DNA of 64,000 bases, from the NCBI RefSeq assembly GCF_057098645.1, contig NZ_CM169472.1. The stretch is one strand, 5' to 3'. This document shows, in pieces, positions 7,846-10,156 of the stretch; the first letter of the stretch is position 1, and each line of letters begins with the position of its first letter. The position numbers and the translations under genes were made by a program. Below the pieces are notes generated by a model. That model worked only from the letters and a program-made list of their open reading frames with translations, searched no databases and was not told where the DNA came from.

Positions 7846-8441
7846 TCGGTCATCACGCGGGTATTGATGACAATACAGCGGCAAAAGCCATTGCCCATGC
7901 CATTCTCGGTGGTGTGACAGCAGCCCTTCAGGGCAACAGTGCGGCAGCAGGCGCAATTGGTGCGGGTACTGGTGAAGTGATCTCGTCAGCCATTGCGAAA
8001 AGCCTCTACCCGGACGTAGATCCGTCGAAACTGACAGAAGATCAGAAGCAAACCGTAAGCACGCTGGCAACGCTGTCAGCGGGTATGGCTGGCGGCATTG
8101 CCAGTGGCGATGTGGCTGGCACAGCTGCAGGGGCTGGTGTTGGGAAGAACATTGCTGAGAATAACTTGGTTGGTGGCACAGAGTCCGAGCAGAGCAAAGC
8201 TGCTCAGACGCATGGCGCAGATGTACTTTCCTGTAACGATGCTCCAGGCGGTGAAGCCTGTAAGCGAGGAGAAGCAGTCAATAAAGCGTATGCCGGAGCG
8301 TTGGCCACTGGTAGTGTAGCTCTCTTACCTGGCGGTGCTCAGGCCATGTGGGCTCTTGGCACAGGTGCAAATGCAGGAATTGGTTACATGGTAGATAGTT
8401 CAGTTGATCCTGAAAATGCAATCATTGCAGGATGGGTCTGA
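7846..8441 (+). pseudogene. orphan CdiA-CT-like toxin fragment: pretoxin PT-VENN-like region (AENN) plus about 90 aa of CT N-terminal region, cut by IS629
   Basis: KLTEDQKQTVSTLATLSAGMAGGIASGDVAGTAAGAGVGKNIAENN resembles CdiA pretoxin region ending in VENN-type motif; two Cys after motif; reading frame ends at TGA that is first triplet of IS629 IR. Confidence 0.5.
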
Positions 8442-8480
8442 ACCGCCCCGGGTTTCCTGGAGAGTGTTTTATCTGTGAAC

Positions 8481-9371
8481 TCAGGCTGCCAGATCATCGT
8501 TTCCGATGGAAGCATAATAAGCTTTTTCTGCTTCTGCCGGAGGAGTATGGCCCAGCCTTTCCAGCAATCGTCGATTGTTATACCAGTCCACCCACGTGAG
8601 TGTGGCCAGTTCCACTTCTGCACGGTTTTTCCAGCTCTTACGGTGTATTACCTCCGCTTTGTAAAGACCATTGATGCTCTCCGCCATCGCGTTGTCATAC
8701 GAGTCGCCTGTACTTCCTGTTGATGCCAGTAATCCGGCTTCCTTAAGCCGCTGTGTGTAGGCCAGCGATACATACTGAGAACCTTTATCACTGTGATGGA
8801 CCGTGCCGGACGGTCGACGGGCCCATAACGCCTGCTCCAGTGCATCCAGCACGAATGTCGTCTCCATGGACGATGAGACCCGCCACCCCACAATGTATCC
8901 GGCAAACACATCAATGATGAACGCCACATAGACGAAGCCCTGCCATGTGCTGACGTAAGTAAAATCAGCCACCCACAGCTGGTCAGGTCGTTCTGCCACG
9001 AACTGACGGTTTACGCGGTCGCCTGCGGCAACGGCTTTCCGGCTGATGGTCGTACGGACCTTTTTACCCCGGAGAACACCGGCAAGTCCCATAACCGCCA
9101 TGAGACGTGCCACAGTGCATCTGGCCACTCTGATACCTTCCCGTAACAACTGACGCCAGACTTTACGCACACCGTATACCTTGTGATTTTCATCGTATAC
9201 GCGCTGTATCTCTTTCTTCAGCCAGTCATCGCGCTGCGCACGGGCACTGCGTTTATCCGGATGATGTCGCTGTTGCTGACAGTGGTAATACGTTGACGGG
9301 GCAATATGCAGTTCGCTGCATAGCGGTCCGACCCCGTACTGCTCACGCAGCTTATCCAGCAGTGGCATCAT
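8481..9371 (-). CDS. IS629 transposase OrfB (DDE integrase domain)
   Basis: 296 aa with DDE motifs ([25 protein letters not shown]); start overlaps orfA stop; expressed as OrfAB by -1 frameshift. Confidence 0.85.
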
Positions 9372-9694
9372 TTTTTCCAGAGGCGGTCGAACTCCGCCTT
9401 CGCAAAATAAGCGGAAGCCTGGCGAAGGATATCGTTACTGCGGCGCAGTTCACGATTTTCACGCTCCAGCTCTTTCAGACGCTGACGTTCAGCGGTGGTG
9501 AGCCCTCCATCACCGCCCCCGGTATCCCGCTCATGCTGGCGAACCCAGACACGCAGAGTCTCCGGCGTACAGCCAATCTTTGGAGCAATGGAACAAATTG
9601 TCGCCCATTGTGAGTCATATTCGCCCTGACTTTCCAGAACCATACGGACTGCCCGTTGACGGACTTCAGGGGAAAAACGAGTATTTTTAGTCAT
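9368..9694 (-). CDS. IS629 OrfA (HTH / leucine zipper)
   Basis: 108 aa [19 protein letters not shown]...; A6 slippery run (minus-strand GGAAAAAATGATG, approx 9366-9380) at orfA/orfB overlap. Confidence 0.85.
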
Positions 9695-9745
9695 CCTGTT
9701 TACCTCTTTCTCAGGAAGTTTAGTCTCCAGGATTCCCGGGGCGGT

Positions 9746-10156
9746 TCAATCAGTGTTTACTTCCCTGGCCTCGCTACCATTGGTATAGCTACTACAGTCT
9801 TCATCACTGCCACGCTCATTCTCACAGACATGTTTCTCGACCTTTCCAAGATATCTGACGCCTTTTCGCGGAATGGTTTTAATTAGAGAACTCGACAAAC
9901 CAGCGATGTCTAATGCCTTTCTAAGCATGTAAATCTGCCCATAATAACTGCTGTCGCTTACCGAACCTTTCTGCTCCCGCCAAACCTCATTGATAATATG
10001 TTGCTTATCGGATTCTCCCTGTAGTAAAAGGAGTAAAAATCGATAGCCGTTTTCAGACAGATTAATTACATTGCCTGTACTGGTGGTGATACGTCGAGAC
10101 GCTGGGTAAAACTTAACTCCCTGCCCTAAAGAAAAATAAAAACGGTCATCGCTCAT
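9746..10156 (-). CDS. OmpR/ToxR/CadC-type winged-helix DNA-binding protein, probably truncated at IS629 junction
   Basis: 136 aa; winged-helix trans_reg_C pattern (LSENGYRFLLLLLQGESDKQHIINEVW...IYMLRKAL...PRKGVRYLG); stop codon supplied by IS629 terminal TGA; no TM or periplasmic domain. Confidence 0.55.
   Translation of the reverse strand: MSDDRFYFSLGQGVKFYPASRRITTSTGNVINLSENGYRFLLLLLQGESDKQHIINEVWREQKGSVSDSSYYGQIYMLRKALDIAGLSSSLIKTIPRKGVRYLGKVEKHVCENERGSDEDCSSYTNGSEAREVNTD

Follow-up and report, generated by a model that had tools for sequence, protein, structure and literature searches.

A complete copy of the insertion sequence IS629 lies between the stub of a toxin gene and a truncated regulator gene in the window, by which is meant the whole 64-kb stretch of DNA that was analysed. 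The bases that border its two ends differ. The locus raises the question of whether the element still occupies the place where it inserted or instead marks a place where sequences of separate origin have come together. [quoted passage not shown]

The element, its ends and its flanking triplets

The features of the locus are collected in Table 1. Exact end mapping returned, to the base, the bounds that had been proposed in the initial annotation. The transposase is encoded on the minus strand, and the left end of the element in the window is IRR and the right end is IRL. The two arms are imperfect, with 23 of 25 positions complementary (92%), and the termini read TGAAC...GTTCA, which is the 5'-TG...CA-3' form of about 25 nt. 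Over its full length, the copy is 100% identical to many chromosomal and plasmid copies from O145:H28 strains, as well as to the 1,310-bp feature "insertion sequence: IS3 family IS629" of LC567824.1 (an Stx2a phage). Membership in IS629 was judged by a threshold of more than 95% nucleotide identity over the full length, with the LC567824.1 feature as the reference.

Table 1. Features of the IS629 locus, with positions counted in the window.
Feature	Position	Strand	Basis
Truncated fusion ORF, 547 aa (IS66 TnpC N-terminal part and CdiA part)	6798..8441	+	Domain search
Left flanking triplet GTC, IRR side	8436..8438	.	Direct reading
IS629 (IS3 family), complete copy, 1,310 bp	8439..9748	-	100% identity to deposited IS629 feature
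IRR, terminal inverted repeat, 25 nt, TGAACCGCCCCGGGTTTCCTGGAGA	8439..8463	.	End mapping
orfB, 296 aa, HTH_21 and rve (DDE integrase core)	9371..8481	-	ORF list and domain search; frame open
ALIL frameshift-stimulating pseudoknot (RF01497)	9297..9413	-	120.2 bits, model positions 1-117 of 117
orfA, 108 aa, HTH_Tnp_1	9694..9368	-	ORF list and domain search; frame open
IRL, terminal inverted repeat, 25 nt, TCTCCAGGATTCCCGGGGCGGTTCA on + strand	9724..9748	.	End mapping
Right flanking triplet ATC, IRL side	9749..9751	.	Direct reading
Truncated wHTH (Trans_reg_C-like) regulator, first 136 of 201 codons	10156..9746	-	ORF list and domain search

The reading frame that results from the fusion of orfA and orfB is open. 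An A6 slippery run is located at positions 9371-9376, where a -1 slip fuses ...WKK to MMPLLDK... and gives a 404-aa OrfAB. The ALIL pseudoknot, for which the gathering score is 50 bits, is complete, and identical copies of the element carry an NCBI annotation as an intact programmed-frameshift transposase. The element is intact, and the earlier statement that both inverted repeats and the OrfA/OrfB frameshift window are preserved is confirmed by the 25-nt arms, the A6 run and the full pseudoknot. Activity, as predicted from this intactness and from the identity to many other copies, is plausible. A second copy of IS629 was not found within the 64-kb window. In general, the element shares every feature of the known IS629 of Shigella and EHEC (IS3 family, IS51 group; near-identical to IS1203/IS3411), including the length, the imperfect 25-nt TG...CA repeats, the A6 -1 frameshift, ALIL and the DDE (rve) transposase. 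The sole difference is the absence of a 3-4 bp target duplication.

The flanking triplets had been given as GTC on the left and ATC on the right, and both are borne out by direct reading. The junctions read ...GGATGGGTC/IS/ATCAGTGTT... and, at greater length, ...GCAGGATGGGTC/IS629/ATCAGTGTTTAC..., so the 4-bp flanks are GGTC on the left and ATCA on the right. Identical direct repeats of 3-4 bp would have spoken for a simple insertion; exact end mapping detected none at the window copy, and none appeared when the ends were moved by +/-1 nt. As controls, every full IS629 copy in the related loci compared here was mapped (n=15, including the window copy). Perfect 3-bp duplications are present in 6 of these 15 copies, namely both copies in M15 (ATA and GTA) and those in DLI.6n (CTT), C325 (AAC), 99-3311 (GAA) and the melB locus of 95-3192 (GTC). 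None is present in the other nine, which include the window copy. Similar proportions have been published for four O157:H7 genomes, in which 21 of 47 IS629 sites have a duplication of 3-4 bp and 26 have none (PMC3271280). Most IS629 sites thus lack a target duplication, and its absence here is less remarkable than the initial annotation implied. A target duplication is a property of the insertion event and not of the element.

Two flanks from different loci

On the left, the 547-aa ORF joins a truncated IS66 TnpC in frame with CdiA DUF637/PT-VENN and with part of an orphan C-terminal toxin domain. The ORF stops at the terminal TGA of IS629, which cuts the frame 130 codons short; the uninterrupted version in M15 is 390 bp longer. 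The uninterrupted sequence of M15 and DLI.6n reads GGATGGGTC/AATGTAATC, and beyond window position 8438 it continues as AATGTAATCACC.... There, the additional 390 bp of the toxin ORF are followed by a 72-aa putative immunity gene and, further on, by a second orphan module (CT-o11/cdiI-o11), the fec operon, an integrase and tRNA-Phe. The left flank belongs to an orphan cdiA-CT module from a Phe-tRNA island. A Pfam search assigned no family to the deleted toxin C-terminus or to the 72-aa putative immunity protein.

The right flank begins within the gene of a winged-helix regulator of 201 aa, at codon 136, and the stop codon of the remnant is again a terminal TGA of IS629. The full-length protein has a C-terminal hydrophobic segment that resembles a membrane anchor; in the 136-aa remnant, the wHTH part is all that is left. 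The uninterrupted reading TGTGTGC/ATCAGTG was found in RM12761, 95-3192, PapRG-06-5 and CUWW06. In these four genomes, the flank is preceded by ...GAAATGTGTGC and the remaining regulator gene, beyond which are the flp pilin gene and then the tad/cpa pilus operon. The right flank is situated inside the regulator gene of the flp/tad operon beside glcA. The description of the element as joining a toxin stub to a truncated regulator is correct on both sides, as judged by the domains and by the uninterrupted relatives.

These comparisons show that the left and right flanks come from two sequence contexts that are unrelated to each other and, judging from the sequences, were never neighbours. Removal of IS629 restores no contiguous sequence known from the genomes that are uninterrupted at either breakpoint. 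The triplets GTC and ATC are one base apart, and the match of two of the three flanking bases (TC) might suggest that a simple insertion took place and that its 3-bp duplication mutated afterwards. Such an insertion predicts a contiguous ...GGATGGGTCAGTGTTTAC... or ...GGATGGATCAGTGTTTAC... in uninterrupted references, and these references refute it: the left side continues as described in M15 and DLI.6n, and the right side is preceded by regulator sequence in four genomes, at a different locus. Because the flanks continue into different loci, this explanation is excluded, and its probability is negligible. The initial annotation had preferred an IS-mediated deletion or recombination to a simple insertion, and this preference holds, given the missing repeat, the unrelated flanks and the serial IS629-anchored breakpoints in relatives that are described below. 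The comparison with related genomes that it had proposed succeeded in part: each uninterrupted flank was found, and the immediate precursor junction was not. The best reading is that of an intact IS629 at a rearrangement junction and not at an original simple-insertion site.

The whole junction, or either half of it abutting IS629, is absent from 5,426 complete E. coli genomes. For this reason, the immediate precursor is unobserved, and we infer the order of events. Across NCBI, ENA and Logan, the 136-aa regulator remnant occurs on 23 contigs, and the 547-aa stub product occurs on 8 NCBI contigs; the full-length 201-aa regulator allele is found on at least 1,000 contigs. The counts of 23 and 8 were considered as an indication of which junction arose first. 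This use was rejected since the 547-aa ORF spans multi-copy IS66 DNA, which breaks short-read contigs, and the counts consequently give no order of events.

Independent draft contigs that carry the junction halves match the window base for base and end within the IS. Carriers of the 136-aa regulator allele include GCA_032490195.1, ERR769171, DRR634163 and SRR26133514, and carriers of the 547-aa stub allele include GCA_032290885.1 and GCA_032490095.1. Both halves are linked through a single IS629 copy only in the window, which leaves a small residual chance of mis-assembly. An artefact of this kind, in which two IS629 copies were collapsed and their flanks falsely joined, would be in keeping with the multi-copy nature of this 1.3-kb repeat, with the ends of the independent assemblies inside it and with the failure of any complete genome to reproduce the junction. 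It is made very improbable by the base identity of both halves in independent assemblies, by the contiguity of the window over 64 kb and by the closed genomes of RM12761 and RM13516, which link the same two neighbourhoods through a single IS629. The junction is a fixed marker of a minor sublineage.

Breakpoints at the IRL and IRR ends

Two references were used for tiling: "TAD", the intact tad-regulator-glcA region of PapRG, and "ISL", the DLI.6n island minus its IS629. The window tiles as ISL (forward) up to 9678, then IS629, then TAD from 8001 onwards. At the island/tad boundary, the O145:H28 lineage carries an IS629 that is oriented as in the window, with IRL toward tad/regulator, and the start of the tad sequence varies by strain. 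After the IRL end, TAD starts at 3381 in 95-3192, at 4407 in 99-3311, at 4825 in Z1323HEC0422 and, as the deepest breakpoint, at 8001 in the window. Other O145 genomes, which were left out of the tiling, have the same spacing of about 4.6 kb between the IS and the regulator as 95-3192. Compared with 95-3192, 4,620 bp (3381 to 8001) are missing from the window directly at the IRL terminus, and the starts at 4407 and 4825 are intermediates. This is a contiguous loss from the exact terminus of an IS in the same orientation, as is characteristic of an end-anchored deletion.

The island/tad boundary of C325 contains no IS and reads ...AATAGCC/TGA/ACCGATGAC.... The terminus of IS629 reads TGAACCG, and the tad reference at this join reads ATGCGCACCGATGAC; the join has a 4-bp ACCG microhomology, and 6 bp of the flank are lost. 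On its sequence, it looks like the scar of an imprecise IS629 excision. In Z1323HEC0422, IS629 is located exactly at ...AATAGCC/, and in 95-3192 the junction reads IS629/ATGCGCACCG. The three junctions are most readily understood as alternative states of a single ancestral IS629 site. Under this reading, the site has been excised in C325 and eroded on the IRR side in 95-3192, and it has been eroded increasingly on the IRL side in 99-3311, Z1323HEC0422 and the window. The window junction IS/ATCAGT shares 2 bp (AT) with the presumed ancestral IS/ATGCGC, for which the chance expectation is 1/16.

IS629 transposes by a copy-out-paste-in pathway according to the literature, and one proposed model is that an IS end, once cleaved, is joined by "sloppy" strand transfer to an ectopic site close by (bioRxiv 10.1101/2023.06.07.543989). 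Both the nested series of breakpoints at IRL and the scar in C325 agree with this model, and an end-anchored deletion is therefore favoured for the right junction. The overall scenario, in which we place somewhat better than even confidence, is that of a resident IS629 with successive flanking deletions and rearrangements. One copy would have stayed in place, and its flanking DNA would have been removed repeatedly. In the sublineage of the window, a deletion flush with the IRL terminus would have taken about 4.6 kb, comprising what was left of the tad genes, the flp pilin gene and the final 65 regulator codons, and would have created the IS/ATC junction. Following published mechanisms, the IS629 transposase would cleave the IS end, and the break or strand transfer would be resolved at a nearby ectopic site, a process that the IS-excision enhancer IEE may promote. 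O145:H28 is reported to carry iee (PMC9397093), and the 64-kb window spans no SpLE1-like element. The published IEE experiments concern mainly IS loss together with the flank, and the retention of the IS with loss of the flank is reported from comparative genomics (Ooka 2009).

Mismatched flanks can also arise when homologous recombination between two independent IS629 insertions leaves one hybrid copy with half of each duplication. One copy would have been present in the cdiA-CT stub (GTC duplicated) and another, in the same orientation, in the regulator (ATC duplicated). A RecA-dependent crossover of the identical 1.3-kb copies would then have deleted the intervening DNA or exchanged arms between loci. 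Inter-copy recombination is the textbook route to such flanks, and its product is indistinguishable in sequence. Approximately 20-40 near-identical IS629 copies are available in O145:H28 genomes, and the distance between the two flank contexts in most of them fits an inter-copy exchange better than a local deletion. The finding that other IS629 copies at this locus are hybrids too points in the same direction. Apart from a single SNP in a different copy, the compared copies are identical and thus offer no signature by which a hybrid IS could be recognised. However, neither parental simple insertion occurs in the complete genomes, and the breakpoints at 3381, 4407, 4825 and 8001 would each demand a separate same-orientation insertion and crossover. 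The reciprocal junctions of an inter-copy inversion would be IS629 IRL/GTCAATGTAATC... and ...TGTGTGCATC/IRR IS629, or, as sequence pairs, GGGGCGGTTCA with GTCAATGTAATCACC and GAAATGTGTGCATC with TGAACCGCCCCGG; no reciprocal junction was found within the 64-kb window. We regard recombination between two copies as a serious, although less probable, alternative origin of the locus.

The left junction is less secure in the favoured scenario of a resident element with flanking deletions. In most O145:H28 genomes, the gentisate-LysR-IS66-stub segment is located about 1.36 Mb away, on the cadC/pheU side, and deletion alone consequently does not explain the left side. In typical O145:H28 genomes, the segment stops at the equivalent of window position 7794, where it meets another IS629 beside a truncated efa1; the stub is attached to IRL, the opposite end, of a different IS629. 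Both flanks have the same chromosomal orientation in these genomes. A single large IS629-IS629 inversion that joins pheU-island DNA to glcA was considered and rejected, as the orientations do not fit. The IRR junction with the cdiA-CT stub would have arisen separately, through a flanking deletion or through exchange with another IS629, and the exchange is a live alternative for this junction.

The closest complete genomes are those of RM12761 and RM13516, which are 100% identical to the window on both sides of its IS629. Both link gentisate-LysR to tad-regulator-glcA through one IS629, and only in these two is gentisate-LysR found beside the IS629-tad junction at pheV. The fec island of RM12761 occupies the true pheV site, next to yqgA-speC. 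In both genomes, the left breakpoint is at window position 5250, and the IS629 is inverted relative to the window copy, so the window is no simple derivative of RM12761. The window strain and RM12761 probably share an ancestor in which the segment stood beside the resident IS629, and they diverged through independent IS-associated events. The left-junction event may be placed in the ancestor shared with RM12761 and RM13516, where gentisate/LysR would already have adjoined this IS629. The far boundary of the gentisate segment in RM12761, here called J1, has an overlap of at most 3 bp and no IS. A homologous crossover at J1 was rejected in favour of an illegitimate joint. As a test of whether the sublineage of the window shares J1, the contigs listed for the J1 ORF were examined, and those of the sublineage did not appear among them. 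The alleles to the left of the window, examined for the same purpose, do not discriminate (2 vs 3 mismatches).

Several further observations concern the orientation and the end-points of the element. The cdiA stub is the site of a cluster of IS629 events. When RM12761 is compared with 95-3192, and RM11626 with 99-3311, the IS629 is inverted, and its other end abuts the same tad nucleotide or one that is 4 bp off. In two strains, the deletion end-points are 4 bp apart. Homologous recombination cannot place an inverted IS629 against the same or a nearby tad nucleotide. It is conceivable, although we consider it rather unlikely, that IS629 inserts next to its own terminal repeat through IS-dimer-like intermediates and that local deletions follow, which would make the locus more than a product of random decay. 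If this were true, the locus would be a natural archive of end-targeted rearrangement by an IS3-family element, ordered along the phylogeny.

Known systems and significance

Homologous recombination between copies of an insertion sequence gives hybrid copies, for example, of IS1 and IS150 in the long-term evolution lines of E. coli. Such copies resemble the window element, as a single intact IS with mismatched half-duplications joins DNA that is not contiguous in relatives. Unlike these cases, neither the parental insertions nor a reciprocal junction was found here, and the nested same-end breakpoints of the relatives fit an end-anchored deletion better. A closer parallel in terms of the element and the pathotype is offered by the IS629 polymorphisms and IEE-associated flanking deletions of EHEC (Ooka 2009; Kusumoto 2011, as cited in PMC9943667 and PMC9397093). 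There, as at this locus, strains vary by the presence or absence of the IS and by loss from the IS end. Unlike in those cases as they are described, the window keeps the IS, and both of its flanks differ from those of the ancestral site as we infer it; a role for IEE at this locus is suggested by the literature on the serotype.

Rearrangement of this kind is familiar behaviour for a familiar element. It adds one more IS629-driven erosion event to an island of the O145:H28 lineage, and it has little import beyond strain-level genomics. On the left, an orphan CDI toxin loses its end, and the putative immunity gene of this toxin is lost as well. On the right, it would complete the loss of a flp/tad pilus operon that was already truncated and degraded, and it would turn a membrane-anchored regulator into a soluble wHTH fragment. 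The junction is a clean clonal marker that could serve for sublineage typing, as IS629 sites do for O157:H7, and the locus could be a convenient natural series for the study of IS629/IEE deletion end-points.

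Host reading frames and IS629 end-points in the cdiA stub

The truncated TnpC::CdiA reading frame (+ strand) takes its stop codon from the IS629 terminal TGA at window 8439-8441, and the remnant of the wHTH regulator (- strand) stops at the terminal TGA at 9746-9748, so that each host frame stops precisely where the IS begins and contains no read-through residues. The IS66 tnpC is itself cut short near window 7832, where it is fused in frame to cdiA (DUF637/PT-VENN).

The IS629 insertion or deletion end-points of different strains are clustered within window positions of about 7750-8440, with a further 807 bp in M15.

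End-points in the cdiA stub (positions as window equivalents)
Strain or sequence	End-point	Position	Remark
DLI.6n	IS629	7760	clean CTT duplication
Typical O145:H28	IS629	7794	
Z1323HEC0422	counted in the IS629 cluster	8202	
Window	IS629	8438	
M15	IS629	+807 bp beyond the window stub	

On the pheU (tRNA-Phe island site) side of Z1323HEC0422 (L012; NZ_CP148339.1, about 3951588-3951624), the stub stops at the equivalent of 8202 and is fused straight to an IS630 remnant. Unlike in 95-3192, neither IS629 nor efa1 is present at this stub end. The sequence suggests that IS629 was lost here along with flanking DNA.

IS629 copies and a probable excision scar at the tad boundary

At the edge of the flp/tad pilus operon DNA (tad), the RM12761 IS629 (L004 10298-11607) is inverted, and its IRR end, one of the two terminal inverted repeats, touches tad nucleotide ATGCGCACCG... 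The IRL end of the 95-3192 copy (L005 13716-15025) lies at exactly this nucleotide. The matching end-points of RM11626-C1 (L013 10925-12234) and 99-3311 (L010 5951-7260) are 4 bp apart, at 4403 versus 4407 of the tad reference (the PapRG sequence). Homologous recombination cannot alter which IS end contacts a flank. Possibly, a second copy was inserted beside a terminal repeat in these pairs.

A second IS629 (1 SNP, inverted) lies ~0.5 kb away in 95-3192 (L005 11939-13715) and 99-3311 (L010 7261-9229). It is a simple insertion with a GAA duplication in 99-3311, and about 190 bp are absent beside it in 95-3192, so that this locus has one more short deletion bordering an IS.

The island/tad junction of C325 (NZ_CP124819.1; L009, reverse complement, about 11686-11750) carries no IS and reads AATAGCC-TGA-ACCGATGAC. 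In this junction sequence, a remnant of the IS629 terminus (TGAACCG) is fused to tad DNA through a 4-bp ACCG microhomology, and 6 bp (ATGCGC) are missing. The very same site is still occupied by IS629 in Z1323HEC0422 and 95-3192. The junction looks like a scar of IS629 excision of the IS-excision enhancer (IEE) type.

The gentisate segment and glc operon of RM12761

The glcF gene of RM12761 (L001 12429-12600) is annotated as a frameshifted pseudogene. Its counterpart in the window is the glc operon, to the right of about 16100, and the two sequences match there at 100% identity.

The far boundary of the gentisate segment, J1, lies at L021 31832-31834 (NZ_CP007133.1, about 3676831-3676833). There, fec-island DNA directly meets DNA that is found in the cadC/pheU-side island of 95-3192, with an overlap of at most 3 bp and no IS at the joint; just beyond it, identity to the 95-3192 copy is only about 99.0%. 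Through this joint, an HTH-Hha-Gp2-gentisate-LysR segment of roughly 14 kb comes to lie at pheV in RM12761, with fecE on one side and the IS629-tad junction on the other.
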